Source of the DNA: Treponemataceae bacterium
Lineage (GTDB): Bacteria > Spirochaetota > Spirochaetia > Treponematales > Rectinemataceae
Length of the DNA: 64,000 bases
NCBI GenBank assembly: GCA_963677895.2
Contig: CAXXGJ010000006.1
Span: forward strand, 192,001 to 256,000
Direction: 5' to 3'
Shown here: positions 45,606 through 62,511 of the stretch, in pieces
Numbering within the stretch: position 1 is the first letter of the stretch
How the letters are laid out: each line of letters begins with the position of its first letter
The notes under the pieces: generated by a model
Told to the model about the DNA's origin: nothing
Database searches by the model: none
What the model saw: the letters and a program-made list of their open reading frames with translations, nothing else
Position numbers and translations under genes: made by a program

Positions 45606-45679
45606 GGGCCCATAGCTCAGTTGGTTAGAGCCGCGGACTCATAATCCGTTGGTCCCTGGTTCAAGTCCAGGTGGGCCCA
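45606..45679 (+). tRNA. tRNA with CAT anticodon, most likely tRNA-Ile2 (lysidine); CCA not encoded
   Basis: Cloverleaf GGGCCCA/TGGGCCC, anticodon loop CTCATAA, T-loop TTCAAGT. C4:G69 and C5:G68 pairs as in Ile2; lacks initiator features. Confidence 0.9.
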
Positions 45680-45792
45680 TACCCTAAGACACTTTAGGGA
45701 AATGAATTACGATCAGCTACCAGAAAACTGGCGCTGAATCCTTATCCAATTGTGAGATGGAATTGTGAGAAATTCCGTCTTGGGAGGGTTCA

Positions 45793-47133
45793 ATGCGTCA
45801 GAAGCTGTTCTCGCTACAACTTCGAAATGGTACTTACTATGCTCAGTTGTTTAACCCCATTACACGGAAGTACTCTTCACCAAGATCAACCAGAACTTCT
45901 GATTATGGCGAAGCTAATGGCATAGCCTTAGATTGGCTTAAGAACGGCCTTCCTAATGCACGAAGAGGGCGCTATTCCGAAACCAGCAACTTTGACAGAA
46001 AACGACGAGAAATAGCCGATCTTCTATCGGTAGATGCTGCTATAGCTACCATTAAATCCGATCACTTCAGTCTTGATGATGGCCAGAGAATAGTTGAGGC
46101 TTTGAAAGAACGCGGTATCATCGAATCTGTGGTCCTTACGAGTTCATCCAGCCAGAAGCTGCTTATCCAGTACCTCAAGGATTTCTGGACTTACGAGACA
46201 TCTCCTTACGTTCATGAGAAGCATCTGTATGGGCAGCGTATTGGGAAGCGGCACGTCCTTGAATCCTTGCATCGCGTTCAATACTGGGAGAAGGCTTTTT
46301 CTTCAACCACTCTACTTAGTGAAGTATCAATTCATGACCTTAGAGACTTTACTCTCAAATTAGCCGAAGAAGGCCGGGCAGCAAATACCATCAATCAGAT
46401 CATGTTTGCCGGAACGACAGCGCTGAAATGGGCTGCTTCCCATGGGCAACTGACTGTTGATCCAACAAAAGGCTTAATGCAGTTCTCTGGACAGGCGATA
46501 AAGCGTGGGATTCTCACTGAAAAGGAAGCATCAAGTCTATTCCGTATAGCCTGGAAAGATGAACGGGCTAGGATAGGTAACCTTGTAGCGATGACGACTG
46601 GTTTGCGATCTGGTGAAGTACTAGCATTACAAATCGAGGATATTGGAGCAGATAGGCTTTTCATTCGTCATTCCTGGAGTGCGGCCGATGAGTTAAAGGG
46701 AACCAAGACAAACCGTGAACGGATAGTCCCCTTATTGCCGCAAGTTCGAACGGAATTGATAGCCTTAGCGAAAAAGAACCCACACCGAGGTCCGGAACAA
46801 AAGTTCATCTTCTATGGGCTGCTTCCTGGAAAGCCGATGGTTCCTAATATTCTCCTTGAGGGTTTATGTAGTGCCCTGATAGATATCGGGATGACGGAAG
46901 AAGCTCGGCAAGAACGTCACATCTGTTTCCACTCATGGCGACATTATTTCACAGCACATATGAATTCCATAGCAGATTCTAAAAAGGTTCAGAAGGCAAC
47001 AGGACATACAACGGATTCGGTGTTCGACGGTTATGCCGATCATGAGATAGCTTCTGATATGAAGGTGCTTTCAAAGACAGCAAAGAGTGTCTTCAAGAAA
47101 GTACTAGACTTTAAAATTGCAGTTGATCAATGA
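45793..47133 (+). CDS. Tyrosine recombinase/integrase
   Basis: TGLRSGE (R), TKT (K), HSWRH, GH, DGYA (Y): full catalytic set. Confidence 0.93.
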   Translation: MRQKLFSLQLRNGTYYAQLFNPITRKYSSPRSTRTSDYGEANGIALDWLKNGLPNARRGRYSETSNFDRKRREIADLLSVDAAIATIKSDHFSLDDGQRIVEALKERGIIESVVLTSSSSQKLLIQYLKDFWTYETSPYVHEKHLYGQRIGKRHVLESLHRVQYWEKAFSSTTLLSEVSIHDLRDFTLKLAEEGRAANTINQIMFAGTTALKWAASHGQLTVDPTKGLMQFSGQAIKRGILTEKEASSLFRIAWKDERARIGNLVAMTTGLRSGEVLALQIEDIGADRLFIRHSWSAADELKGTKTNRERIVPLLPQVRTELIALAKKNPHRGPEQKFIFYGLLPGKPMVPNILLEGLCSALIDIGMTEEARQERHICFHSWRHYFTAHMNSIADSKKVQKATGHTTDSVFDGYADHEIASDMKVLSKTAKSVFKKVLDFKIAVDQ

Positions 47134-47149
47134 CCTTTTGGTCGGCTGA

Positions 47150-47791
47150 TCATGAACCAGGGGAGCTTTGATTAGTAGACTTCCCTAATAATTTGTTTCG
47201 GTGCTTAGAGCGTTCTTGGCGTTTCTTTTCTTCATCACTAGCATTTTTCAGCCTCGATTTTGTAGCGCTATACGACTCAGGTGAAATATCCCGATTATTA
47301 ATGAGGAAACATGAGATGATAGCCGTACGAGCTGGTGGAATTTCTAGCTTCCCTTCTTTTTGTACCTCCTCTAGCCATAGGCATAGCTCTTTTAAAGTAC
47401 CATTGAATTTAAGTTTTCCAATATCGCTGTTTCTTGCAACCTTCTGAAAGACACTGCTCGCATTATTAAATTCAATGCTTACTGCCTCGCGGATTTCTTC
47501 TATAAAACTCGTTTGGGAAACAGCATAGTCCCTTAAGGAAGGCGGTTGATGCAGAGCTTTAGATAGTTTTTGAATAGTATATAAAATAGGTCGGATCTCT
47601 TCAGGTTCCTCCTCTATTATTGGATCAATACTAGGCTCGTTGTGCTGCAGTTCAAAAGGAGAAATTTGCCTCAGTTGGCCTTCAAGATATGCTAATCTTT
47701 CTTTTATTATATCCAAAGCCGTAGTGATCTGTAGTTTTTTGCTAAGAACATCCTTAAGCACAATATCAAGATCCATCATTTTCTTAAACAC
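47150..47791 (-). CDS. Hypothetical protein, C-terminus weakly RteC-like
   Basis: 213-aa ORF in AT-rich DNA; KLKFNGTLKELCLWLEEVQKEGKL. Confidence 0.55.
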   Translation of the reverse strand: MFKKMMDLDIVLKDVLSKKLQITTALDIIKERLAYLEGQLRQISPFELQHNEPSIDPIIEEEPEEIRPILYTIQKLSKALHQPPSLRDYAVSQTSFIEEIREAVSIEFNNASSVFQKVARNSDIGKLKFNGTLKELCLWLEEVQKEGKLEIPPARTAIISCFLINNRDISPESYSATKSRLKNASDEEKKRQERSKHRNKLLGKSTNQSSPGS

Positions 47792-47956
47792 CTCATTAAT
47801 CTCTTATCCCATAAGATATTGTATCTAAATATTAATGTTTATAAAGCCTTTGGCATTAATTGTTAATGTCCAAAGTTAACACGGATTTTACTCTAATGGT
47901 TTTATCAAAGCAATCATTTCAGCATACTTCCACTTGAGAAAAGCAAGGAGGTATCG

Positions 47957-48148
47957 ATGGCTGAGGAGTTGAAGGAAGGATTGTTCTCTGTACGACGAGC
48001 AGCTACCTATCTGGGAATCTCAGCGCAGACGTTATATAGGCGTCATCCCGAGATTCCTAGAATTCGGATAGGATCACTGATTCGTTTCCAGCGTACAGAC
48101 CTGGATCAATACATCGACAAGAATCGTTTTGTAAAAGCGGAACTCTAA
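47957..48148 (+). CDS. Excisionase-like HTH_17 protein
   Basis: AAGGAGG RBS; SVRRAATYLGISAQTLYR...RIGSLIRF. Confidence 0.85.
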   Translation: MAEELKEGLFSVRRAATYLGISAQTLYRRHPEIPRIRIGSLIRFQRTDLDQYIDKNRFVKAEL

Positions 48149-48167
48149 AAGGAAAGGAGCACATCAT

Positions 48168-48368
48168 ATGACAACTGAGGAGAGCTTGATGGCAAATAAG
48201 AATCTCGAGGTAGCCCTTGCGGAGGCACCTCAATATGGCTGGTTGAGCATAACGATCAAGTTTAGGGCAGGGAAAATCTGCCAGATAGAACGGCACAAAT
48301 TAGTTCAGACATTACCAAGTAAGGAAGTTCCTTACGGTATAAAACAGATTTCAAGGAGTATCAAATGA
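48168..48368 (+). CDS. Small DUF2292/YezD-like protein
   Basis: YGWLSITIKFRAGKICQIER pattern; AAGGAG RBS. Confidence 0.55.
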   Translation: MTTEESLMANKNLEVALAEAPQYGWLSITIKFRAGKICQIERHKLVQTLPSKEVPYGIKQISRSIK

Positions 48369-49138
48369 ACAGAGCTAATCTAGTTAATCATGAGTCACTT
48401 AACGAGGATCATGCAAAAAAAAACAGAAGACGTTCTATTGATTTAGAAGCACTGTTATACGGCAATCTTCCATCAAAAAAGATCACCCAAGTTTGGACGG
48501 AGGATGGAAGAATCGATTTTATTACCTTTCATAGGGTTCTATTAAAATCCCTCATTAGCCAAAACAAAAGAGTAATTTTCATAACAGGTGATGCAGATTT
48601 GCCAAAACTTCCCTGTATTATTTCTTCGCAAGGTGAAAAATGTATAAGCCCATTGCTAAAAATTTATAAAGTCAGCTTCTTTGAAGAAATCGAAGAGATT
48701 CTTAAGGAAGAGGAAAAATCTCCAGCTGCAATAATCATTGATGGAATCAGTAAAGTTATGTGTCATAGCCAGAGGGGAAAAGGCCATGATGATGCTGATT
48801 TAGTAGAAATTGATAAGGCAGAACTGAATGCTGAAAAGAAAATCATGAAACTCTTGCAACAAAGAACCAAGGATTTTGATTTTCCGGTTTTATTTACTTC
48901 ATATAGTAACCAGGTCTATAGGTCTGGAGGTTACTCATTAGGGTTTTGCCCTGATAAAGAACCCGTACTTTTTTATGGATCGGATATATCCATTGAACTC
49001 ATTCCAGACTCATTGGTGGATGGTTTTCATTACATACAAGCTTTTGAGTATAGACTTTCCAGGAAAACAAAAAAAGAATTGATATTCGCTTGGCCGATAC
49101 GATCCTATTGGAGCCAAGGGTCACTAATCGACCTATAA
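48365..49138 (+). CDS. RecA-fold protein with degenerate Walker A
   Basis: Colinear with the RecA core (SIDLEALLYGNLP, VIFI, IIIDGI, LF..NQ, FYGS) but no GKT. Confidence 0.6.
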   Translation: MNRANLVNHESLNEDHAKKNRRRSIDLEALLYGNLPSKKITQVWTEDGRIDFITFHRVLLKSLISQNKRVIFITGDADLPKLPCIISSQGEKCISPLLKIYKVSFFEEIEEILKEEEKSPAAIIIDGISKVMCHSQRGKGHDDADLVEIDKAELNAEKKIMKLLQQRTKDFDFPVLFTSYSNQVYRSGGYSLGFCPDKEPVLFYGSDISIELIPDSLVDGFHYIQAFEYRLSRKTKKELIFAWPIRSYWSQGSLIDL

Positions 49139-49280
49139 CAAGCCCTATCCTAAAAGAAAAATGACTATCAACAGAGGAGATAGAGTTGAAGGACCATATA
49201 TGAATTAGCCTTGATAAATATTAAGCCCTATAACGAGCCCCATCTTAATAGAAAACTGATCATAGGTTTAGGAGATAGCA

Positions 49281-50321
49281 GTGATAGACAGTATTGGAAT
49301 TCATACGAAGATAAGTCTCGATGAAGTTGAGTCTTTTATTTATCACCTGCAAGAAGTTAAGAGAAGCCCACGTAAGATAATCGGAAAGATTAATGGTATT
49401 CCGATAAAGGTATTACAAAGTGGAGATATCTACTCAAACTTCAGTCTCCCTAAATACTTCCTAAGATTAACTGGTAAGGTATTAAACGTTACACTGATGC
49501 AAGAGTGTATTGAGAACATCTTGGATGATATACCCGCTTTTCATGATGGAAACCTGTATAGGATAGATATAGCTGATACATTTACGATGTCACAGCCGAT
49601 ACCAAATTATCTGGAGGTTCTTGGGCCAAAAAATAATTGTAGAAGAGTGGAAGATATCTTTGGGTCAAAACCATATAGATATGACTATGATCACCAGACT
49701 AAACACTATAGGTATAAAATACGATCTCTGGTTTTCTATGATAAAAACGCTGAAGAGTTAAGCCAACGTAAGGGGATGAAGCCTGAAAAATTCATTCACA
49801 ATCTATCTACCAACGAACTACGATACGAACTTCAATTCAAGGAAGGTGTCGCAAAACAATTATACAGTGATATAGAATATCAATTTACGCTAATGGATCT
49901 ATTACATCCTAGTCTGTTAAAATTGCTCGCTGATTATTGGAAGAATGAATTTGATGATATCTTGTTAATTCCTCAAAGCTGCTTTTGTCCAGTATTTGAT
50001 ACAACGATAGGTTTTCAAAATGCATTGGCAAGCTATGGCTATCAATGTGCTGGGCCAAATAATGTTGAGGCTTTAATAAAGAAAGCAACGAAAGAACGTA
50101 AGATAAGCAGTCAAAGTGGTTCTCGATTAAGAAGAAAATTACGTAAGAATTATAGGCAGTATTCTAAAGGGATACAATCAGATCCAATTTCTGAGCTGCA
50201 AAACGCTGTGAATACGTCATATAAGAAGTTCCTTACGCACATAGAGTCACTCCAAACCATACAGGCTGTTCAGCAGAATGAACTCAATAACCTAATTGAA
50301 GGAGATAACGATGAAAAATGA
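49281..50321 (+). CDS. Phage/plasmid replication initiator, gene II/X (Rep_trans-like) family
   Basis: MIDSI, SLPKY, YRIDIA, LVFYDK, LRYELQF; AGGAG RBS with GTG start. Confidence 0.75.
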   Translation: MIDSIGIHTKISLDEVESFIYHLQEVKRSPRKIIGKINGIPIKVLQSGDIYSNFSLPKYFLRLTGKVLNVTLMQECIENILDDIPAFHDGNLYRIDIADTFTMSQPIPNYLEVLGPKNNCRRVEDIFGSKPYRYDYDHQTKHYRYKIRSLVFYDKNAEELSQRKGMKPEKFIHNLSTNELRYELQFKEGVAKQLYSDIEYQFTLMDLLHPSLLKLLADYWKNEFDDILLIPQSCFCPVFDTTIGFQNALASYGYQCAGPNNVEALIKKATKERKISSQSGSRLRRKLRKNYRQYSKGIQSDPISELQNAVNTSYKKFLTHIESLQTIQAVQQNELNNLIEGDNDEK

Positions 50322-51330
50322 AGCAGATTCTCTACAAAAACGATGCAAACTTTTTCAGAAAGTAGAAGAAACAGGTAACGTGGCTGAAGCCTGTCGGACT
50401 CTGGGCGTCAATAAATCATCCTACTACAATTTTAAAAGCCTATATGAGAAATATGGAGTTGAGGGGCTTAAGGGGAATAACAAAGAGGACTTGAAACATC
50501 TGTCATCAGAAAAGGCTAGAAAACGAAAGATGGACAAAATAGCTGAGTACGTTATTCAATATCCTGAAGTCGGTTGTCATAGGATTAGAAATTTTCTTCT
50601 TGAAGAGAAAGTTTCAATGTCTGCAAATGCTATTCAAAATGCACTTAAATACAGGGGATTAGGCTCAACTATTGATAGGATTCATGCCCTTGAGGAAAAG
50701 TTATACAAGGAAGATACAAACCCTACTGAGGAGCAGCGTGAACTTATAGAAGGAAAAGACCCATGTATGAAGGAGCGGGGATTAGTGTGTAAAGCCCCAG
50801 GCGAAGTTTTAGTTCAATGTATTTCTAGCTTGCATACACCTTCAACTCAGAAAGTATTATTCGCTCATTATGTAATTGATCGGTATGGATGCCTGGCCTT
50901 CCTAATATTCGACCGTTCGGAGTCAATTGATGTTTCTATCCGGCTGCTAAACGATAGTGTAATTCCTTACTACGATGAAATGGGAATCAAGATTCAAGAG
51001 ATTTTGCTTGAAGCCGAAGAAGAGCCTGATGCAGAAAACTTGTCAAGATATAGTAGTTTCGTGAAGAACTATGGAATAGCGCTTAGGTTCATAGAAAGCA
51101 CAGATGAAAACGCAGATGGGTTTGCCCAGCGTTTTGAGACCTGCTTTTGTGATAAGCTACTATCTGATCCAAAGACAAAGTTGTATCTAGAAGAGATTGA
51201 AGTCTTAAACGAGAAGTGCCAGATCTGGTTGAATCGGTATAATTCTAGTTCATATCATGGCTATAGGAATTTTGGGAACTCTCCATATGATGTAATCAAA
51301 GAATATCGAGCTGGCAGGCAACCAATCTAA
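50311..51330 (+). CDS. IS481-family transposase-derived protein with inactivated DDE triad
   Basis: GNVAEACRTLGV HTH, LLNDSVIPYY, W..RYN, G.SP; triad positions read C/E/Q. Confidence 0.75.
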   Translation: MKNEADSLQKRCKLFQKVEETGNVAEACRTLGVNKSSYYNFKSLYEKYGVEGLKGNNKEDLKHLSSEKARKRKMDKIAEYVIQYPEVGCHRIRNFLLEEKVSMSANAIQNALKYRGLGSTIDRIHALEEKLYKEDTNPTEEQRELIEGKDPCMKERGLVCKAPGEVLVQCISSLHTPSTQKVLFAHYVIDRYGCLAFLIFDRSESIDVSIRLLNDSVIPYYDEMGIKIQEILLEAEEEPDAENLSRYSSFVKNYGIALRFIESTDENADGFAQRFETCFCDKLLSDPKTKLYLEEIEVLNEKCQIWLNRYNSSSYHGYRNFGNSPYDVIKEYRAGRQPI

Positions 51331-51429
51331 ATGGACAGAGTTTTTGGTACTTCCCTATTGGATGAGGAGATTTATGCCACCAGAATACTTAATGGACTCC
51401 AAAAAAGGGGACCGAATAGAAAGGATTAA

Positions 51430-51581
51430 CTCCTTACGGCAAGAAGAAGGGGCCTTACATACGGGATAAAGCGGGCTGGGAAGGGCTCGATCCAAGAGCT
51501 TGAAAAAAGGCTCCTTACGGTTTTCCCGTTACGCTCGAACTGCAGCTTCTATAAAAATGAAAAGCACCTCCTTACGGTTTT
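51430..51581 (+). repeat. Three direct repeats CTCCTTACGG
   Basis: 51430-51439, 51511-51520, 51568-51577; copies 2 and 3 extend to CTCCTTACGGTTTT. Confidence 0.9.
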
Positions 51582-51751
51582 GTGCTTAAGTACAAAAGTG
51601 TACTTCCATATGACTTGAACCAGATCTAAAAGACAGTAAGAATTCCTCTTATGGCATGGCTCTGAAAGGCTTCTTCTTGCCTGGTTTTTGCTTGTTTCCA
51701 CCCTTCAACCGAAGTAGAATGACAAAAAGATGAAAAAAGGGAGAAGTTGAC

Positions 51752-54661
51752 GTGCCAGATGAGCTCAATCCATCCCAATGTCGTGCTGTTGAATCGACCG
51801 AAACTCCCCTCTTGGTTATCGCTGGGCCAGGTGCAGGAAAAACCAAGACTTTAGTTGAGCGAATAGTAGCCTTGGTCACAAAGAAGCAGGTGCCATCTGA
51901 GAGCATCTTTGTTGCGACGTTTACCGAGAAAGCAGCCAAAGAACTTGTAACTAGGGTTTCGAACAGGGCGATAGAGCTCGGTGTGGATATCAACCTCAGC
52001 GAAATGTATATTGGGACCCTTCATTCCATTTTCCTTAGAATTATCGAAGAATACCGGCCCTATACCTTGTTGATGAGGAACTATCGTGTTCTTGATGACT
52101 TCGAACAGCAATACCTTATCCACCGTTCCTTAGCAGCCTTTCAAGCAGTGAGCGATTATAACACCCTCATAAAGCCCATGCTAAACCGCTGGGAACAAGC
52201 AAAAGAGGTAGCGGGGCTCGTCAATAAAGCTGCGGAAGAAGATCTTGAACTTGACCGGCTTTCAGCATCTCCTTCTGCCGAACTGAAAGCGCTGGGGGCG
52301 ATCACCCAAGTATATCGTTCCAAGCTGCAGGAAGAAAACGCCTTAGATTTTTCGACAATCCAATCGACGATGCTCAAACTCATCACTGAACAGCCAAAGG
52401 TTCTTTGCGACCTTCAAACGAAGATTAGATACTTCATGATAGACGAATACCAGGATACGAATACGATCCAGGAAAAGATTCTCCTTATGCTAGCCGCTCC
52501 TGATAACCGCATCTGCGTTGTTGGTGACGACGACCAGAGCCTGTATCGGTTTCGCGGGGCGACCGTAAGGAATATCCTGGAATTCAGAAAGAATTTCGCC
52601 TCAGGAGAATGCGAGAAAGTTGAGCTTGTCACCAACTACCGATCACACCCCAAGATCATTGATTTCTACAACGAATGGATGGGATCTATTCCGTCGAAGG
52701 GTTCATGGACGGGAGAAACTGGAGAGAGTTTTCGCTATCCCAAATTGATACGACCGCGAGACACGACGTTCTCGGACTATGAATCTGTCGTAAAAGTTGC
52801 GGGGCTGGAGAGCCAAGAATCTTGGAATGAAGAGGTCCTTACGTTCTTGCGATCCTTGAGAGACAAGGGGATTCTTAAGGATAACAACCAAGTTGCATTT
52901 CTATTCCGATCAGTCAAGAACAGCAAGGCGATTGCGCTAGCGACTTTTCTTGAAGAAAATGGCGTCCCAGTCTTCTCTCCAAGATCCGCACTCTTTTTCC
53001 AGCGAGAAGAGATTCGACTGCTCATCGGAGCATATGTCTTTCTCTTTCCTCAGCTCATTGAAAAACACCTGAAATGGCAAGCTGACGCCGAACTTAAGGA
53101 ATGGGATTACTATCGAGAATGCCTTGAGCTCTTCACGAATGAATTGCGAGCGAATCCTGATCTGCATAAGGAGCTCAGGATTTGGTGTGCCAAGAAGGCG
53201 AAAGTCCATAGCTCCTTGAGCGAGAATACAAACTACTCTTTCGCCTCGCTCTTCTATGAACTCCTGGCCTTTCCCATGTTCTCACGTTATGTGGATACAG
53301 AACTGACCGGTGGGGTGTCGGACCTCCGTCCTGTCTATAATCTCTCGCTTTTCAGTCAACTCCTGGCCAAATTCGAGTTTCTTCACAATATAATCGTCCT
53401 TACACCCGAAAGCTTAACAAAAGATCTCCGCTCTCTTTTCAACCAATACCTCCGCTATCTCATTGATGGTGGTATCGCTGAGTATGAGGATTTCGATAGC
53501 TTCGCGCCTTCTGGATGTGTATCGTTCATGACCATTCATCAATCCAAAGGCTTGGAATTCCCGATCGTTTTAGTCGATTCGCTCAATAGTGTTCCAGTTA
53601 CTTCCATCGAAGCTATCGATACAGCGCTGGCGAATTTCTATCGGGAAGATGAGCCTTTTGAACCCCCGGAACGAATCAAATATTTCGACTTCTGGAGACT
53701 CTATTACACTGCGTTTTCCAGAGCACAGAATCTCCTTGTCCTTACTGGCGCTGAAAACCATTCAGGAAAGGGTATGTCTCGACTTCCATCACTCTACTTC
53801 GCACCACTTTATAACAAGCTTCCTGACTGGAGGGATGCGCGGCTCGACGAAAGTCATCTTCTCTTGGACACAGTAAAGCCAGCGAATATCAAACACGAAT
53901 ACTCATTTACATCTCATGTCTTGCTTTACGAGGATTGCCCTCTCCAATACAAGTTCTTCCGTGAACTGGAGTTCAGCCCTGTCCGGACAAACGCTATTCT
54001 ATTTGGTACTCTTGTGCATCAGACGATTGAAGATGCGCATAAGGCTGTTTTGGCTGGCAAGTCAGACATGATCACCGCAGACCAGATTCACTTTTGGCTC
54101 GAAGCGAACTACAAGAGCCTCTCCAAGTCGACAAGAACATACCTGGCGCAAGGGACTTTAGGAGCTGTTGAGGATCATGTTCTTCGCTACGTGGATCAGG
54201 CTAGCCGGGACTGGAGCGCAATCCAGGAAGCTGAACTCAGGGTTGCGCTGCTGAAAGAGAACTATATCCTTACGGGTTCAATAGACCTCATTCGCGGCAA
54301 AGAACAAAGCGTCGAGATCATCGACTTTAAAACTGAAAAGAAACCTGATATCAACAGCCCGGAAGGCCGTGAAAAACTCGACAGATATAGGCGTCAGCTT
54401 GAAATATACGCCCACATAGTTGAAGAACGATATGGTCATGAAGTGAGTCGGATGCATCTTTACTATACGGGGGCAAAAAACGAGAGTCCTTACATAAGCT
54501 ATGACTATGAACCGAGGAAGATCGACAGCACAATTACTGCCATTGGCGGTGTGGTAGGGAAGATTGAAGCGAAAAACTTCGATCATCACCATGTTGAAAA
54601 GTCAGAGCGACATTGCAGCAATTGTGACGTCAAACCCTTCTGCTGGAGGAATTTTATCTAA
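51752..54661 (+). CDS. UvrD/PcrA-like SF1 helicase fused to an AddB/Cas4-like PD-(D/E)XK nuclease
   Basis: AGPGAGKT, DEYQDT, GDDDQSLY.FRGA, TIHQSKGLEF; C-terminal EDCP, IDL..IIDFKT, QLEIY, CSNC...C. Confidence 0.9.
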   Translation: MPDELNPSQCRAVESTETPLLVIAGPGAGKTKTLVERIVALVTKKQVPSESIFVATFTEKAAKELVTRVSNRAIELGVDINLSEMYIGTLHSIFLRIIEEYRPYTLLMRNYRVLDDFEQQYLIHRSLAAFQAVSDYNTLIKPMLNRWEQAKEVAGLVNKAAEEDLELDRLSASPSAELKALGAITQVYRSKLQEENALDFSTIQSTMLKLITEQPKVLCDLQTKIRYFMIDEYQDTNTIQEKILLMLAAPDNRICVVGDDDQSLYRFRGATVRNILEFRKNFASGECEKVELVTNYRSHPKIIDFYNEWMGSIPSKGSWTGETGESFRYPKLIRPRDTTFSDYESVVKVAGLESQESWNEEVLTFLRSLRDKGILKDNNQVAFLFRSVKNSKAIALATFLEENGVPVFSPRSALFFQREEIRLLIGAYVFLFPQLIEKHLKWQADAELKEWDYYRECLELFTNELRANPDLHKELRIWCAKKAKVHSSLSENTNYSFASLFYELLAFPMFSRYVDTELTGGVSDLRPVYNLSLFSQLLAKFEFLHNIIVLTPESLTKDLRSLFNQYLRYLIDGGIAEYEDFDSFAPSGCVSFMTIHQSKGLEFPIVLVDSLNSVPVTSIEAIDTALANFYREDEPFEPPERIKYFDFWRLYYTAFSRAQNLLVLTGAENHSGKGMSRLPSLYFAPLYNKLPDWRDARLDESHLLLDTVKPANIKHEYSFTSHVLLYEDCPLQYKFFRELEFSPVRTNAILFGTLVHQTIEDAHKAVLAGKSDMITADQIHFWLEANYKSLSKSTRTYLAQGTLGAVEDHVLRYVDQASRDWSAIQEAELRVALLKENYILTGSIDLIRGKEQSVEIIDFKTEKKPDINSPEGREKLDRYRRQLEIYAHIVEERYGHEVSRMHLYYTGAKNESPYISYDYEPRKIDSTITAIGGVVGKIEAKNFDHHHVEKSERHCSNCDVKPFCWRNFI

Positions 54662-54723
54662 AATATATTGCTATTTTGTAAAAAATGTGCAAATATTGAG
54701 TATATTTCCTCTTGGAGGCTAAT

Positions 54724-56013
54724 ATGCTGCTAGAGTTTCGTGTTTCCAACTATCGATCTATCAGGGATGAGCAATGCCTCAGTCTCATGCCAGTTGCAGC
54801 TGATACAGCTCTCAAAGCAAGCAATGTTTATAAAACCAATAGTAGCTTAGTACCTGAAGTGTTGAATGGCTGTGCTGTTTATGGAGCCAATGCCAGCGGG
54901 AAATCCAACCTATTCCGAGCTATGGGATTCATGCAAGCGCTTGTTAAAGAGTCCGCGACGGCGGTGAAAGCCGGGCAAGCGCTCAATGTGCAGAGCTTCG
55001 CCTTTGACAAAACACATCCTTCTTCAGCTTCATCCTTTGAACTGACCGCTTTGATTGAGGGAGTACGCTATCAATATGGGTTCTCCCTGACAGCGAATCG
55101 AATACAAGACGAATGGCTATTGGTTTTTAAGTCCAGTAAGCCTCAGGAGTGGTTCTCCAGGAAATGGAACGAGAATACAAAGCAGCATGATTATGCTCCT
55201 TTCAGCGCCTATTTTTTGGGACAAAAGGATCTTTGGAAGCGTTCGACCAGAGAAAATGCCCTCTTCCTCTCCACTGCGGTACAGTTTAATAGTGAGCAGC
55301 TGAGACCTCTTTGGAATTGGATCGTCAATAGCTGGATCAATCTTCCTGCAATGGTACCTCTAAATATGAATATTACTCTTAACGCCATTGAACATGTGCA
55401 AGCTAAGAAGACCATTCTTGAGTTTCTGAACGCTGCTGATCTTGGGATTGCGGATATTTCAATTGTTAAGGCTCCTGGCAAGGAGGCGCTGTTTGCGATC
55501 GATGGGGCTACTGGAAATGCCTCGGTTTCTGAGAGCAAGGATACTGAAATACGAATGCCGCGATTCACCCATGTTGCCTCGCAGCAGACAGTAGCGCTGG
55601 ACTATCAAGATGAGTCTCAAGGAACTCAGCGCCTTTTTGAGTATGCTGGAATAATCCTCATGATCTTGCAGAATGGGATGACACTCGCAATTGACGAGAT
55701 TGAAAGTAGTATGCATCCCCTCCTGGTGCGGCATATTCTAAAGCTTTTCTTCTCTCCTGAGACGAATCCTCATGGTGCCCAGATCATATTCACGACACAC
55801 AGCACAACGCTCTTGGATAATGAGCTTCTCAGGCGGGACCAAATCTGGTTCACCGAGAAAGATGCAGACCTCGCTACCGCTTTGATTGCCTTCAGCGAGT
55901 TTAGTCCTCGCAAAAACGAGTCCTTTGAGAAGAACTATCTTGATGGACGATATGGCGCTATTCCTATACTCCGTACATTCCAGGCAAAGGAAGCGACGAA
56001 TGCACGAAAATAG
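54724..56013 (+). CDS. AAA_21 ABC-type ATPase (RloA/AbiLi-like)
   Basis: NYRSI, YGANASGKSN, ESQGTQR, IDEIESSMHP, FTTH, RRDQIWF, YLDGRYGAIP. Confidence 0.88.
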   Translation: MLLEFRVSNYRSIRDEQCLSLMPVAADTALKASNVYKTNSSLVPEVLNGCAVYGANASGKSNLFRAMGFMQALVKESATAVKAGQALNVQSFAFDKTHPSSASSFELTALIEGVRYQYGFSLTANRIQDEWLLVFKSSKPQEWFSRKWNENTKQHDYAPFSAYFLGQKDLWKRSTRENALFLSTAVQFNSEQLRPLWNWIVNSWINLPAMVPLNMNITLNAIEHVQAKKTILEFLNAADLGIADISIVKAPGKEALFAIDGATGNASVSESKDTEIRMPRFTHVASQQTVALDYQDESQGTQRLFEYAGIILMILQNGMTLAIDEIESSMHPLLVRHILKLFFSPETNPHGAQIIFTTHSTTLLDNELLRRDQIWFTEKDADLATALIAFSEFSPRKNESFEKNYLDGRYGAIPILRTFQAKEATNARK

Positions 56014-56692
56014 CCCCAAAAAACGTCAAATCAGACGTCTAGAACGTAAAGCCGGAAAGAGGCCGCTATATCCTCGTATACTGATGGTCTGTGAAGGAAG
56101 TAAAACGGAAAAACTCTACTTCGATGATATTCGACAGCATTGGAGAATATCTTCGGCTGATTGGGAGGTGTTGCCTTCTGAACTTGGAACGGGACCTGAA
56201 AAGGTTGTAGAGTTTGCGGAGCAGAAGGCTCGTGAGGAGAAGAAATGGGACGAAGTCTATTGCATTTTTGATCGCGATGACCATGTTTATTACCAAACGG
56301 CAATACAAAAAGCGAAAAGCCTCGACGGCAAAATACGGCCCAATGATCCAATTGCAGCCAGTTCTCGATTTATGGCGATACCCTCCATACCTTGTTTTGA
56401 GTTGTGGTATCTCATTCACTTCGTATCGATCACCCAAGAGCTTCCCAGGGATAAAGTGTACACGCAACTAAAGATTAAAGTTCCTGAATATAGTAAAGGT
56501 GCTGCAGGCATGTTCGAAAGAACATTTTCGAGACTCTCCTTCGCGTGTACAAGTGCCGAAAATGAGAGGAAGCGAAAAGAACAGTCTGGTAATGATAACC
56601 CTTCAACTGACGTAGACATTCTTGTTAAGCGTCTACAGGAAATCGGGGCGATGAAAACAAAAGCGATGACAAAACAGCGGGGCGAAGAATGA
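56000..56692 (+). CDS. RloB-family protein (AbiLii-like)
   Basis: VCEGSKTEKLYF, CIFDRD, SIPCFELWYLIHF, NPST; overlaps the ATPase stop. Confidence 0.88.
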   Translation: MHENSPKKRQIRRLERKAGKRPLYPRILMVCEGSKTEKLYFDDIRQHWRISSADWEVLPSELGTGPEKVVEFAEQKAREEKKWDEVYCIFDRDDHVYYQTAIQKAKSLDGKIRPNDPIAASSRFMAIPSIPCFELWYLIHFVSITQELPRDKVYTQLKIKVPEYSKGAAGMFERTFSRLSFACTSAENERKRKEQSGNDNPSTDVDILVKRLQEIGAMKTKAMTKQRGEE

Positions 56693-58638
56693 ACGAAGAA
56701 TCGAGAGAGGCGCGGCTTCCTTACGGTACAACCGAGAGCACGCCACAATACACATTCGACTATGAACCGATACGCGGGTACCCAGAGCTTCGTTGGACAG
56801 GGAAACGACCGTTTCGCGGTACTACATATTTCCCCGCGCAATTGAAAGAAAACCATGGCGACTCCGTCGATGGTTGGCGAAACAAGCTCTATTGGGGCGA
56901 TAATCTCCAGGTGATGAGTCATCTCCTTCGGGAATATCGTGGGAAAGTAAAGCTTATCTACATCGATCCTCCATTTGATTCCAAAGCTGACTACAAGAAG
57001 AAGATTGAACTTCGGGGCGCTAACGCCACAAGCGATGCGAGCGCTTTTGAAGAAAAGCAGTACACAGATATTTGGACGAATGATGAGTATCTGCAATTCA
57101 TGTATGAACGACTAATCCTAATGAGGGAATTGCTTGCGGAAGATGGGAGCATATTTCTTCACTGTGATGATACAAAAAATGCTTACCTTAAGTTACTTCT
57201 TGTCGAAGTGTTTTCTGAATCGAATTTTCGAAATGAAATAGTTTGGAAAAGATCAACAGCAACTGGGTTGGCAATGAAACGATGTGGGACGCTTCATGAT
57301 ACTATTTATTGGTTTTCAAAGAGTAATAACTATCAGTTTACAATGCAGTATCATAAATATGAAGAAGAATACCTAAAGCGAATTAGGAAAGACGAATCCG
57401 GACGAGACTATATCCCTATTCCAACAGGGAATCCAGGTCCAAGACCAAATCTTTATTATGAGTATAAAGGCTATCTACCCCACCCTAATGGATATAAATG
57501 GACTAGGGGAAAAATGGAAGAATTGGATCGCCAGGGGAGGCTTATATTTCCTGAGTCAAAAGAGGGACGGATACAGTATAAACAGTATCTAGATGAAATG
57601 GAGGGTGTAAAGCTACAAGACCTATGGATAGATATTCCGCCTGTAAATCCTGTTGCTAAGGAAAGACTTGGTTATCCAACACAAAAACCTGAAGCATTGA
57701 TTGAGAGAATTGTAAAAATGACGACGAAGCCTGGGGACCTTGTTTTTGATTGCTTCATGGGGTCCGGAACGGCTCAAGCAGTTTCAATGAAGCTCGGCCG
57801 TCGCTTTCTTGGTGCAGATATTAATTTAGGTGCCATACAGACAACTACTAAACGGCTACTTGGAATAGCAGATGAGCTAAAAAGCGGGATACCAGAGCTT
57901 GCTCTTGGTGATCTTGTTGAACCTGCAAAGATAATCACAGGATTTGAAGTCTTTACTGTCAATCATTACGACTTCTTTCGCAACGAACTCGAAGCTAAGG
58001 AATTGCTTATAGAAGCTCTCGAGTTACAGAAACTCCCTGGCAACATGCTTTGGGATGGAGAGAAGGAAGGATGGATGGTGAAGATCCTCGCTGTTAATCG
58101 CTTGGCTACAGCCGCCGATCTGAATCCCATCCTCGGAAACTTGGATTATAAAGCTTGGGAACGACGTTCACGAGAACATCCTGATAAACCAGTGGAACGA
58201 ATCAGGTTTGTCTGCATGGGACACGATCCGGATTTAAAGGCACAATTCTTAGATGAAATGGCTAAGATTGGTTTTAAAGTTGAGCTCGAGGTTCTCGATA
58301 TTTTGCGTGATAGGAAAGAACTTCAATTCAAGCGGGAAGCCGAAGCTAAGATTGTCCTTACGAAGAAAAAGCTTGAGATTCAGAGCTTCTACCCAATGAA
58401 CCTTTTACAGAAGCTTTCGTTCGACCGGGCGAAAGTTGGAGAGTGGCGCGAACTTGTCGATTCCGTCTTGATCGACTGGAACTATGATGGAGCAGTCTTT
58501 AGCCCCTCACTCTCGGATATTCCAGATAAGAATACCTTAGTAAGGGGTGCCTATGATGTCCCCGACGACGCTGGGACAATTAGGGTTAAAATAACCGACC
58601 TGATTGCCGAATCGTGGGAAGAGAACGTAGGAGCGTAG
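56689..58638 (+). CDS. mod: Type III R-M methyltransferase (Mod), beta-class amino-MTase
   Basis: WGDNL, IYIDPPF, YPTQKPE, DCFMGSGT. Confidence 0.9.
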   Translation: MNEESREARLPYGTTESTPQYTFDYEPIRGYPELRWTGKRPFRGTTYFPAQLKENHGDSVDGWRNKLYWGDNLQVMSHLLREYRGKVKLIYIDPPFDSKADYKKKIELRGANATSDASAFEEKQYTDIWTNDEYLQFMYERLILMRELLAEDGSIFLHCDDTKNAYLKLLLVEVFSESNFRNEIVWKRSTATGLAMKRCGTLHDTIYWFSKSNNYQFTMQYHKYEEEYLKRIRKDESGRDYIPIPTGNPGPRPNLYYEYKGYLPHPNGYKWTRGKMEELDRQGRLIFPESKEGRIQYKQYLDEMEGVKLQDLWIDIPPVNPVAKERLGYPTQKPEALIERIVKMTTKPGDLVFDCFMGSGTAQAVSMKLGRRFLGADINLGAIQTTTKRLLGIADELKSGIPELALGDLVEPAKIITGFEVFTVNHYDFFRNELEAKELLIEALELQKLPGNMLWDGEKEGWMVKILAVNRLATAADLNPILGNLDYKAWERRSREHPDKPVERIRFVCMGHDPDLKAQFLDEMAKIGFKVELEVLDILRDRKELQFKREAEAKIVLTKKKLEIQSFYPMNLLQKLSFDRAKVGEWRELVDSVLIDWNYDGAVFSPSLSDIPDKNTLVRGAYDVPDDAGTIRVKITDLIAESWEENVGA

Positions 58639-58639
58639 A

Positions 58640-61240
58640 ATGGCAAAGAAAATTGCTCTACCAGCAATAGTTACCCTCCCTTTCTTTGAGTATCTATGGA
58701 GCTTCTATCGCGCCAATCGCGGACAGATTCGATTCTCTTATAAAGATCTCACAAAAAGGCTCTTGGATTTCAATGACCCCTCCAATGCCGGAGCTTTCCT
58801 CCGAAAGCCGCAGTTCGAAGCGTTTGAGATGTATGTATTCCTAAAGGAGTACCTTGATAACCCCAAACTTGCCGAATTGCTCGATGACTGGCGTAATAAC
58901 AAAGGCAAGTTTCAGCTGAAGAATACTCCTGCGGCAGATCAGCAAGATCTCTTCGGTACTTTAGATGCAAACGTCTATGATGAAGCATTCAAAAAACTTG
59001 AGGCTGTTCGCCAGGATTATGCAAACTACATCTTTGCCTTAACGATGGGGGTAGGGAAAACCATCCTCATGGCATTGTGCATCTTCTATGAATTTCTGCT
59101 CGCTCGAAAATTCCCTTCAGATACACGTTTTTGCCATAATGCAATTGTCTTCGCTCCGGATACAACCGTGCTTCAGTCTCTCAAGGAGATACAAGAGTTC
59201 GATAAAACTAAGGTGATTCCCGCTGAATACGCTCGCGGCCTCAATGCTGAGATAAAATTCTATTTCCTCGAAGAATCTGGTGTAACGCTCAATACACTTG
59301 ATCGATCAAGCTTTAACGTTGTTATTTCCAACACACAAAAAATCATACGCAAACGCCAAAACGCGCAGAAATCAGCGTGCGACAAGCTCTTTGCTCAAGG
59401 CGACTGGGACGATGTACTAGCAGTAGACACCAATGCAGATCTGTACGATATTGGCGATGAAGAAGGGCTTTCGACCAATCAGCGTTTCCAGAAGCTTTCG
59501 CGGCTTCATCAGCTTGGTATCTATGTCGACGAAGCTCATCATGCATTTGGAAAGACTCTCAAGAAAGACATGGCAGATCATGAGTCTAAAACCAGTCTGC
59601 GCTTGACGATTGATAGCCTTGCCCGCGAACTCTTGCAAGCAGGCACTCGTGTCGTTGCCTGCTATAACTTCACCGGTACTCCTTACGTTGAGAATGAATT
59701 GATGCCGGAAGTGGTTTATGCCTTCTCATTGAAAGATGCGATTTCAGGCAGGTATCTCAAGACTGCTAAAGTCACACAGGTTCAAAATGCGCTCTCGCTA
59801 GAGTTTATTCGGAATGCTATAAAAAGCTTTGTGGCGGAACATGGCGATGCGCGATATGAAGGCATGCTCCCCAAGATGGCTATCTTCGCCGCGACCATCA
59901 ACGAACTTGAGCAAGAGCTTAAGCCTCAGGTCGAAAAAGTATTAATAGAATTGGGGCTACCCACATCAAGCATTCTCGTCAACGTTGGTGATGAAAAGCT
60001 CACAAGCCAAGACGATATCCGGGATTTTCGTTCACTCGACACTCGTGATTCCATTAAACAGTTCATTCTTTTGGTTGGGAAGGGGAAAGAAGGATGGAAC
60101 TGCCGATCCCTTTTTTCTGTAGCTCTCTTCAGACAACCGAAATCGAAGATCTTTGTCTTGCAGGCGACCATGCGCTGTCTTCGGTCGATAACTAGCGTTC
60201 AACAAGAAGGCCATGTTTTTCTCTCGAACGAGAACTACGAGATCCTAAAAGCTGAACTTGAAGCCAACTTCAGGCTCTCCGTCGATGAATTCCAGAGCAA
60301 ACCCGATGATGGGAAGAAGACAGTGATTCTCAAAGTTCACAAACCTCCGGTCTTTATCGATGTTGTAGAGTCTAAGACCCTCTATAACGTAGCAGAAAAG
60401 CATCCGCAGCCTGGGTATTCGCTAGGCCTTGATGAACTCGATACAACACAATATCGAATCACTTCGACCACTACGGATATCCGTAGCATCGAATCGGTTG
60501 AGGGAGGAACGCGCGATCTCTCGTCCTTACGCGACGATATTGAGTTTTCTGAGATAATGTTGGTTGCCGAAGTTTCCCGATATCTGAATAAGAGTCCTAT
60601 AGAAGTAGAAGAGCTCCTTTGCCAATCTGCCGAAAGAATGGAAGGCATCCTTGTTTGGGTGAATCGAGCAAACAGAATTCTCTATGACATTGTTATTCCA
60701 CGCCTTTTTAAGCACCTCTATGAAATAGAAGAGTATCAAGGCCCCAAGCATAAAGTACGAAAGTTGCTCGTAAAAGATCCGCCAAATGGTGAAGAGGGAT
60801 ATACGATGCGAGTAGATCCCGCTCTCTTCATAGAAGAATCAACGCTAGAGTATTCTACATACAAAGATAAAAGCTTCCATCTCTCTGGGTATGGCTTTGA
60901 TTCAACTCCCGAACTAGAGTTCTTCCGCCAAAACTTGCCGAACCTTCATATAAAGAAACTTTGGTTCACGGGGATGCTCACCGCAGGCCAGACAGAATTC
61001 AACGTCCATTATATCGACCCGAACTCAAACGCGCTTAGAACGTACTATCCGGACTTTCTGCTCGAGTTGGATGATGGAACGTATCTCATCGTTGAAATTA
61101 AAGGCGATCATATGATTGATGACCCGGTGACACAGGCCAAGAAAAGCTACGCGGAGCGTATGGCTGAGGCTAGTCGAATGCGATATAGACTGATTCCTGG
61201 TAGTCAGGCGGGGCATAAGATGGATATTTTTCTTGGATAA
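58640..61240 (+). CDS. res: Type III R-M restriction subunit (Res)
   Basis: MGVGKT, DEAHH, FTGTP, EGW, Q..MRCLR; C-terminal YYPDF...EIKG nuclease. Confidence 0.88.
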   Translation: MAKKIALPAIVTLPFFEYLWSFYRANRGQIRFSYKDLTKRLLDFNDPSNAGAFLRKPQFEAFEMYVFLKEYLDNPKLAELLDDWRNNKGKFQLKNTPAADQQDLFGTLDANVYDEAFKKLEAVRQDYANYIFALTMGVGKTILMALCIFYEFLLARKFPSDTRFCHNAIVFAPDTTVLQSLKEIQEFDKTKVIPAEYARGLNAEIKFYFLEESGVTLNTLDRSSFNVVISNTQKIIRKRQNAQKSACDKLFAQGDWDDVLAVDTNADLYDIGDEEGLSTNQRFQKLSRLHQLGIYVDEAHHAFGKTLKKDMADHESKTSLRLTIDSLARELLQAGTRVVACYNFTGTPYVENELMPEVVYAFSLKDAISGRYLKTAKVTQVQNALSLEFIRNAIKSFVAEHGDARYEGMLPKMAIFAATINELEQELKPQVEKVLIELGLPTSSILVNVGDEKLTSQDDIRDFRSLDTRDSIKQFILLVGKGKEGWNCRSLFSVALFRQPKSKIFVLQATMRCLRSITSVQQEGHVFLSNENYEILKAELEANFRLSVDEFQSKPDDGKKTVILKVHKPPVFIDVVESKTLYNVAEKHPQPGYSLGLDELDTTQYRITSTTTDIRSIESVEGGTRDLSSLRDDIEFSEIMLVAEVSRYLNKSPIEVEELLCQSAERMEGILVWVNRANRILYDIVIPRLFKHLYEIEEYQGPKHKVRKLLVKDPPNGEEGYTMRVDPALFIEESTLEYSTYKDKSFHLSGYGFDSTPELEFFRQNLPNLHIKKLWFTGMLTAGQTEFNVHYIDPNSNALRTYYPDFLLELDDGTYLIVEIKGDHMIDDPVTQAKKSYAERMAEASRMRYRLIPGSQAGHKMDIFLG

Positions 61241-61293
61241 GCGAATAAACTCGATTTTGTAAAAATGATTAAAAGCCAATGCTAGGAGGGAAT

Positions 61294-62511
61294 ATGAAGA
61301 GCGAAAACTCACAACGTATACTCGGTTATCTTCAACAATGCTTATCAAGTGATAAAAGACCTCTTAGCTTGTTTTTAGGCGCAGGGTGCCCGTTAGCAGT
61401 TAAAACAGGGCAAGACAAATCGGTTCCACTAATACCAGATATATCAGGAATAACACAGATAGTACGTAATGAATTATCAGAATGTTCAGAGTGTGGCCCT
61501 CTCTTGAAGGTAATAGAAGAGCACTTTATGACAGATGGGGTGGAAACAACATCTATTGAAGATATGCTTACACACATTCGTTCACTTAGGGCGGTCGCAG
61601 GTAATGCTGAAGTCCGTGGCCTTTCTGCAACAAATCTTGACAAATTGGATAACCGTATATGTCAAATAATATATAGAATTGTTGATAAAGAACTTCCAGG
61701 CATCGATACACCATACCATTATGTTGCTTCATGGGTTGATTCAGTAAGAAGAGAAAACCCAATCGAGGTGTTCACGACAAATTATGATTTACTAATGGAA
61801 CAAGCCTTTGAAGACAATAAGGTACCTTATTATGATGGATTTACCGGTGTACGCAAACCTTTTTTTGATCTTCGCGCAATGGAAGAAGACATGTTGCCAC
61901 CGCGATGGGCTCGACTGTGGAAAATACATGGGTCGATAAATTGGTATCAGGTAGATAATAAAGGAGTGTTTCGAGGAACTGCGGAAGAGAAACAGGGCTC
62001 TAAGCGTGTTATCCACCCATCGCACTTAAAATATCAAGAAAGCAGAAGATTGCCCTATTTAGCTATGATGGATCGCTTAAGAGCATTTTTTAAACATCCA
62101 ACTGCAACTTTACTTACATGTGGTTACTCATATCGGGATGAACACATTAATGAAATCATTATTCAGGGGCTTGAATACACGCAAACCGCTGTTGTCTTTG
62201 CTCTGCTATATGGAGACCTTGAGGTATATTCAAATGCGATTACTCTTGCTTTACGGAATTCAAATCTAAATTTATTGGCTAGTAATGGAGCGGTTATCGG
62301 AGGACAAAAAGTGGTCTGGCAAGAGCGAGAAGCTGAACAAGAAACGGAAGAATCAGTTGATTGGCTAGCCTGGAAAGCGGTTCCGTCTAGTCCTCAACCT
62401 GACAAGCAAAAGGCTGAGCTTTTACTTGGTGATTTTGCTATCTTTGGAAAATTTTTACATGAGCTTACTGGCACTCAAAAGCGCTTTATGGAGCAAGGGA
62501 ATGTCAACTAA
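61294..62511 (+). CDS. SIR2-like NADase (SIR2_2), Sir2-HerA defence system
   Basis: FLGAGC, FTTNYDLL.E, KIHGS..W, GYSYRDEHIN; AGGAGG RBS. Confidence 0.9.
   Translation: MKSENSQRILGYLQQCLSSDKRPLSLFLGAGCPLAVKTGQDKSVPLIPDISGITQIVRNELSECSECGPLLKVIEEHFMTDGVETTSIEDMLTHIRSLRAVAGNAEVRGLSATNLDKLDNRICQIIYRIVDKELPGIDTPYHYVASWVDSVRRENPIEVFTTNYDLLMEQAFEDNKVPYYDGFTGVRKPFFDLRAMEEDMLPPRWARLWKIHGSINWYQVDNKGVFRGTAEEKQGSKRVIHPSHLKYQESRRLPYLAMMDRLRAFFKHPTATLLTCGYSYRDEHINEIIIQGLEYTQTAVVFALLYGDLEVYSNAITLALRNSNLNLLASNGAVIGGQKVVWQEREAEQETEESVDWLAWKAVPSSPQPDKQKAELLLGDFAIFGKFLHELTGTQKRFMEQGNVN

Follow-up and report, generated by a model that had tools for sequence, protein, structure and literature searches.

A conserved one-stranded octamer in a tRNA-integrated defence island of a Rectinemataceae genome: a possible Chi-type site for host AddAB

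Several short, asymmetric DNA words are known to act through their orientation. Chi is orientation-dependent in its protection of rolling-circle tails, and rolling-circle plasmids form Chi-dependent linear multimers. The orientation of KOPS (FtsK-orienting polar sequences) and SRS (SpoIIIE recognition sequences), and of the TraB recognition sequence (TRS) octamers of Streptomyces, guides a DNA motor. In the present study, a stretch of 64,000 nucleotides from a Treponemataceae bacterium (Rectinemataceae; assembly GCA_963677895.2, contig CAXXGJ010000006.1, positions 192,001 to 256,000), here called the window, was analysed for the octamer TCCTTACG (CGTAAGGA on the other strand), which recurs along one strand of a mobile anti-phage defence island integrated at a tRNA gene of this free-living spirochaete. 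It is a real and conserved polar word. The word is laid out like Chi, but is not filed as Chi because enrichment in the host is missing.

PMC12315714 describes Chi-rich phages without a recombination module (lambdoid LLS, 20 versus 3; Pseudomonas MD8, 32 versus 0), and 10.1101/2021.07.08.451572 reports Chi in P1 to be dense outside open reading frames (ORFs) too. The octamer resembles the Chi of LLS, MD8, and P1 in being the top octamer of a mobile genome, in being one-stranded and denser than in the host, and in occurring in non-coding DNA as well. Unlike in these phages, it is carried by a tRNA-integrated defence island in which no virion genes were noted, in a host with AddAB rather than RecBCD, and it is unrelated to known Chi, infrequent in the host, and spread rather than clustered at one end. 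For AddAB, it is reported that the Bacillus enzyme is controlled by its own Chi (PMC7326373), that plasmids build up linear concatemers when AddAB (or RecBCD) is missing, these concatemers being the form that phages package (PMC5615212), and, in restating it, that there is a choice between Chi and an inhibitor (PMC8791490).

The other systems match in part. As in rolling-circle plasmids, there is a one-way signal and a rolling-circle-type initiator (Rep; a weak match here), although no Rep was identified in the second motif-bearing element (G005, described below) and no multimer was observed. KOPS, SRS, and TRS are likewise asymmetric octamers, but TCCTTACG is unskewed on the chromosome and the elements have no FtsK-like or TraB-like gene in common. 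The layout of phage-inducible chromosomal islands and other satellites, with int, xis, and a replication module at a tRNA attachment (att) site together with defence cargo, is present in this element. Unlike in satellites, no small terminase (TerS) or capsid gene was noted, and the helicase slot is occupied by a RecA-fold protein lacking Walker A; no packaging-hijack genes were recognised among the element proteins scanned, TerS being found only in relatives. Apart from most subscription papers, the literature yielded no report of TCCTTACG, no integrative defence island or satellite with polar words, and no Chi for spirochaete AddAB.

Abundance, polarity, and conservation of the octamer

There are 13 copies of TCCTTACG on the + strand of the window, starting at 46133, 46203, 48329, 50230, 51431, 51512, 51569, 52836, 54267, 56718, 58355, 59680, and 60524, and one on the − strand (52564-52571, inside the UvrD-nuclease gene). 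All of these positions, listed in a first-pass annotation, were exact on recheck, and the five near-copies that it gave (50964, 53397, 53739, 54487, and 63774) are present. Also as it had stated, the word is absent from 1-45.6 kb, with no TCCTTAC on either strand before 46133, exact copies are lacking in rloAB and sir2-herA, and all three reading frames are used within genes. An extra near-copy, TCCTTACT, lies on the − strand at 48318-48325 and forms an inverted pair (48318..48336) with the + copy at 48329, inside a 51-aa ORF (48210-48365) that has no PHROG match. When the window was shuffled preserving dinucleotides, 14 copies were reached in none of 100 shuffles (mean 1.69, maximum 6).

The element is ~31.4 kb in size (G000:C6 ~237.6-269.1 kb) and ends ~13 kb beyond the window, with seven further + octamers in that part. 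Over its whole length the octamer is found 20 times on the + strand and once on the − strand (P 2e-5 for polarity) and the heptamer TCCTTAC 30 and four times, respectively. Local order-2 and order-3 Markov models predict 0.51 and 0.83 octamers (log10 P −24 and −20), and the word ranks first in the element at k=6, 7, and 8. Synonymous-codon resampling of the 22 coding sequences gave a mean of 0.66 copies against the 15 seen, with 15 or more in 0 of 500 resamplings, ruling out a codon or dipeptide artefact. Enrichment therefore survives both the Markov and the codon-aware comparison that the annotation had proposed. Single-base variants in positions 1-6 are not enriched and those in position 8 show a mild excess (13 versus 4.5 expected); the word is a strict octamer, with tolerance mainly in the last base.

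The copies are dispersed over 27 kb, at ~1 per 1.5 kb on one strand, and the heptamer spacing averages ~1 kb. This corresponds to 669 copies/Mb in the element against 18/Mb in the host, rather than the similar density genome-wide that the annotation had named as evidence against a signal. Five of the 20 copies are non-coding, in 2,558 of 31,400 bp (P 0.02, or 0.07 without the copy in the 51-aa ORF), so that the density in non-coding DNA is at least that in coding DNA. A promoter scan gave a result no better than chance. When segments of 30 kb (202 in all) were scored, values better than 1e-10 were confined to the island and to C39, a contig rich in repeats. In this contig (46 kb, GC 0.33), which may be a contaminant, a 24-mer is dispersed between short genes at intervals of ~0.8-1.5 kb, with 18 or more exact copies, resembling an integron attC cassette array. 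A host-wide signal such as the DNA uptake sequence (DUS) or the highly iterated palindrome HIP1 is ruled out, as there is no genome-wide abundance on both strands; a KOPS or SRS is likewise ruled out, as TCCTTACG is unskewed on the host chromosome from origin to terminus.

Comparisons with related elements show the copies to be conserved. In L022 (89% identical over 5.6 kb) four out of four exact copies are kept, with only the + copy retained of the inverted pair, and in G091:C82 (92% identical) five out of five are kept and two more are present. The background 8-mer identity is 0.51 and 0.59, respectively, giving a joint P for conservation of ~0.005. The three non-coding octamers at 51431..51576 (+ strand) are all kept in G091:C82, their flanks differing. 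On the other hand, the − strand octamer at 52564 is lost in G091, and of the comparable wrong-strand copies (one octamer and two heptamers) none of three is kept in relatives. In smaller remnants, G012 has four copies on the + strand and none on the − strand in 3.4 kb, and G002 has kept both integrase copies.

A second element, in another genus but at the same att (G005:C2), has 10 octamers, all of them on the same strand. The integrase of this element points in the opposite direction and has 39% identity to that of the window; the block common to the two elements encodes a second tyrosine recombinase (88% identical), a secreted protein, an XRE-family helix-turn-helix (HTH) protein, an ankyrin protein, and a 252-aa protein. 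The G005 element also has a distant Sir2-HerA, and a type I restriction-modification (RM) system in place of type III. Within the common block, five out of five exact copies are kept (P ~4e-4); the remaining five lie in genes that are absent from the window element, one of them antisense in the integrase. The polarity of the word goes with the xis-side backbone and with neither the integrase nor the att site. The conservation in homologous elements on which the annotation's proposal depended is thus found, for nine out of nine copies in L022 and G091 and five out of five in G005, and a polar, element-specific, conserved cis-signal is borne out by the Markov, codon, host, and relatives comparisons. 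Three of the proteins that had been named as its readers (the island's UvrD-nuclease, the type III methylase, and the IS481-like protein) are not; the fourth, Xis, stays a candidate.

Homologous cargo is found elsewhere without the word. Homologues of UvrD-nuclease, Mod, Res, and RloA with 59-73% identity lie on contigs of G063 and G086 that contain no heptamer in 25.9 kb, and at none of the 10 exact cargo sites does the homologue also have the word. The copies therefore arose after capture into this lineage, which is simpler, or were lost elsewhere. Amino-acid changes forced by the motif were also considered, but seven of the 10 exact sites differ from the homologue, about as the 66-82% protein identity predicts.

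Possible readers of the octamer

The explanation preferred here, tentatively, is that TCCTTACG may be a Chi-type attenuator for the host AddAB. It is a short, asymmetric, and polar word (20:1 and 10:0), and the host encodes an AddB-AddA-like pair (C18:446501-452799), in which AddA is called with TIGR02785 below its cut-off and AddB by reading of the sequence; no RecC match was found in the host genome. Since the same word is used by elements that differ in their xis-side genes and in most of their cargo, and have integrases that are only 39% identical, its reader is suggested to lie outside the element. Likewise, a one-stranded octamer at ~1 per 1.5 kb, in coding and non-coding DNA and on different backbones, points to a directional reader common to the hosts. 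If so, the element would excise and then copy itself in one direction, for which the weak rolling-circle Rep match of the window element can be cited. This would give a linear molecule that is open at one end (a tail formed in replication, or DNA that a helper phage has injected), and AddAB entering the free end would degrade the element unless a correctly oriented site were met. The element would therefore hoard such sites on a single strand, at intervals of approximately 1.5 kb, and these sites would protect a concatemer or let host recombination circularise it. More speculatively, the RecA-fold protein beside xis that lacks Walker A may act in the same step.

A number of observations weigh against a Chi-type site. 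Chi sites are usually frequent in their hosts, whereas this host chromosome shows neither enrichment nor skew (observed/expected ~1), with 63 octamers outside the element against 59-69 expected, 31 of 57 on the G-rich strand, and an inferred leading-strand split of 26 versus 20. The host frequency and leading-strand skew that are usual for Chi, although disputed as defining, are therefore not seen. The skew scan, over 2.6 Mb, was able to see polar host words, as it recovered the KOPS-type GGGNAGGG at the top of the list as a positive control. Even the Pseudomonas Chi, according to PMC12315714, still ranks 43rd in its own host. In addition, the word has no sequence likeness to characterised Chi, no linear or circular form of the element was observed, and no Rep was identified in the G005 element.

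Also against it is the scarcity of the word elsewhere. Fourteen loci with related integrases hold four copies in 419 kb. Genome pair scans covered 401 genomes of the order, 69 of the family, and 301 of the phylum, in overlapping sets; among the matches listed, several dispersed same-strand pairs are found only in G000, G005, and G091, and no other element or prophage has the word, although weakly enriched ones could be missed. Matches in other genomes are tandem repeats or single pairs, the four examined having two to three close copies each. A viral pair scan matched at least 119 loci in unrelated viruses, with at most six non-tandem copies, and no matching phage was present among the matches listed. 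Viral searches with the integrase and with both RecA-fold alignments found no relative, the second recombinase matched four viral loci, all without the motif, and a plasmid search returned distant recombinases only.

It is this absence of enrichment in the host and of other elements with the word that lends weight to an element-encoded reader. That such a protein reads the word as a self-mark is rather unlikely, yet would account for both absences. Candidates are the RecA-fold protein, which might nucleate on the single strand displaced by one-way replication and lies directly after xis in both backbones, the second tyrosine recombinase, whose versions in the two elements are 88% identical and whose gene contains three conserved exact copies, the XRE-HTH protein, which is near-identical in three elements and has a conserved non-coding copy just downstream, and Xis, present in both motif-bearing backbones. 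The more specific idea, that a catalytically dead RecA-fold or other element protein reads the one-stranded octamer to coat or license only the element's own DNA, is considered unlikely; in such private self-marking by a lineage of spirochaete islands, captured cargo would gain the octamer gradually, and the coating or licensing would take place during replication or transfer. However, the two RecA-fold proteins have no BLASTP similarity, so that one common 8-bp specificity is improbable, and the recombinase-HTH block was not found in the fragmented assembly of G091, yet the word is kept there. These recombinase and HTH families usually bind inverted sites, whereas each octamer stands alone and is asymmetric. 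Moreover, 25 loci with distant homologues of the second recombinase (≤55% identical) are nearly free of the word (four copies in 249 kb) and have no convincing alternative dispersed word. The top words near these recombinases are tandem clusters or borderline; in L066 and L080 the borderline one-strand words are GACCTTA (9:2) and TTGCCCTT (7:0), unconvincing after multiple testing. An arm-type site of the integrase was rejected, as the copies extend over 27 kb and are not confined to the att arms, where a ATTGTGAGA-like repeat is found at the ends; the right arm has one 7-/8-mer copy of the word.

Reading by the machinery of a helper phage (a packaging motor, primase, or end-protection protein), whose signal a satellite-like element would have adopted, is quite unlikely. 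Relatives with the same integrase family are satellite-like, two of them with a small terminase (a TerS-like gene was noted in neither of the motif-bearing elements), and the ~1 kb heptamer spacing would suit priming sites, but no phage with dispersed copies was seen among the viral matches listed or in the genome pair scans. A signal at the level of the transcript or the non-template strand (antitermination, pausing, or an endoribonuclease site), with co-oriented genes giving an apparent DNA polarity, is improbable, although 23 of 24 exact coding copies on the motif strand lie sense to the gene that contains them. The G005 integrase has no sense copy and, antisense, an exact copy and a near-copy. 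Of six possible sense sites in counter-oriented genes none is realised, against 23 of 51 where gene and motif are co-oriented (P 0.07). Polarity following DNA rather than transcription is thus moderately supported; the comparisons separating the two rest on few sites and are not significant (Fisher P 0.07-0.21), which counts against a Chi-type site as well. The reverse complement of the word resembles a Shine-Dalgarno sequence, but an antisense Shine-Dalgarno role was rejected, with ATG at the appropriate spacing on the other strand for six of 34 copies against a background of 0.14, and no start-codon excess.

Very improbable are the readers proposed in the annotation, although copies of the word do lie inside their genes, and a mutational drive linked to methylation, for which the weak SAM-methyltransferase-like fold of the 252-aa protein of three elements could be adduced. 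By BLASTP, the G005 element has no homologue of the UvrD-nuclease, type III RM, IS481-like protein, or Rep, and yet has the word 10:0. This argues against Chi activity towards the island's own UvrD-nuclease, against a site for the type III methylase, and against coating by the IS481-like protein; for the first two, the homologous cargo in G063 and G086 (with Mod and Res homologues in G063), which occurs without the word, argues in the same direction. Of the annotation's Chi idea, what survives is an attenuator for the host AddAB, not for the island's helicase-nuclease. A methylation drive would affect both strands and the host genome, and neither is seen.

If the word is a Chi-type site, spirochaete AddAB would have its first candidate Chi, one identified in a mobile element and not in the chromosome. 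Adaptation of sequence to the end-resection machinery of the host would then extend from phages to integrative defence islands, and a chromosome could lack enrichment for the Chi of its own enzyme. If it is instead read by an element protein, this would be a self-marking system of an undescribed kind. With either reader, the word dates the cargo, as copies suggest long residence of a gene and their absence a recent arrival.

Architecture and gene content of the element

At 45.7 kb the GC content drops from ~0.60 to 0.37-0.46, directly 3′ of the integration target, a tRNA with a CAT anticodon (45606..45679, + strand; tRNA-Met by ARAGORN). The 46-bp attL core is the 3′ end of this tRNA (45634..45679, + strand), and the attR repeat (G000:C6:269077-269122) is 98% identical to it. 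Paired ATTGTGAGA-like repeats at both ends of the element (window 45750-45775 and G000:C6 ~268950-269075) are probably integrase arm sites, and G012, G036, and G091 have conserved the 186 bp at the right end.

The backbone begins with a 446-aa tyrosine integrase (45793..47133, + strand; PF00589, E 6e-18; octamers 46133 and 46203), to which the closest named records are from Rectinemataceae, Rectinema, and uncultured Treponema. It is followed by a 213-aa protein of no known family, free of motif copies (47150..47791, − strand), a 63-aa Xis-like HTH_17 protein (47957..48148, + strand; PF12728, E 6.5e-10; PHROG 66), and the 257-aa RecA-fold protein without Walker A (48365..49138, + strand). Next are a putative rolling-circle initiator, Phage_CRI/G2P-like (49281..50321, + strand; octamer 50230), with a weak match to PF05144 (E 1.6e-5; 25.2 bits versus a cut-off of 21.7), and an IS481-like HTH protein (50296..51330, + strand; NF033577, 72 bits versus a cut-off of 224; near-copy 50964).

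In motif-less relatives, a DnaB or primase-helicase-type ATPase comes after int-xis, with Walker A intact in all six checked, and two have a small terminase nearby. Satellite-like islands (int-xis-helicase, two with TerS) are present at L038, L029, L031, L035, and L039, in Rectinemataceae-type genomes. In both motif-bearing backbones this helicase slot is instead occupied by a RecA-fold protein lacking Walker A, a correlation with n=2. The 257-aa protein matches RecA by Foldseek (E 2.4e-8, on a low-confidence model with pLDDT 53), has Rad51-like atlas neighbours, and contains no [GA]xxxxGK[ST]. Its G005 counterpart is a 388-aa RecA-fold protein (L027:1556-2761), with GFGVTT replacing GKT in three out of three G005-type homologues. 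Profile-profile comparison relates the two (probability 89%, E 2e-6); each adjoins xis and belongs to a rare family, with four and three homologues, respectively.

The cargo, all on the + strand, starts with the UvrD helicase-PD-(D/E)XK nuclease (51752..54661; octamers 52836 and 54267; near-copies 53397, 53739, and 54487), the motif-free RloA/RloB (AbiL-like) pair (54712..56692), type III-like Mod and Res (56689..61240; octamers 56718, 58355, 59680, and 60524), and Sir2-HerA (61279..64000, continuing past the window), which has the near-copy 63774 only. Past the window are rmuC, the second tyrosine recombinase, sce7726/sce7725/RES, and the secreted protein, and then the XRE-HTH protein, the ankyrin protein, the 252-aa protein, a type II RM system, and attR. 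The second tyrosine recombinase (L001:5069-6028) has the invariant R, K, H, R, H, and Y, and related islands of spirochaetes commonly carry it. Its 3′ end recurs in degenerate form after the RES gene, as if sce7726-sce7725-RES had been inserted at the 3′ end of the recombinase gene. The 252-aa protein (L001:11889-12647) has 207 homologues and a model with pLDDT 93, in which the methyltransferase-like fold has a best Z of 7.9 (<8); it has no match in Pfam, PDB sequences, or the atlas.

Contigs from four runs were compared with the window; no excision joint was seen, attR lying outside the compared stretch, and among the variants listed one disrupts the near-copy at 53739. In the contig of run X3, ~0.83 kb is swapped in the middle of the mod gene (window 57113-57940), consistent with exchange of the target-recognition region.

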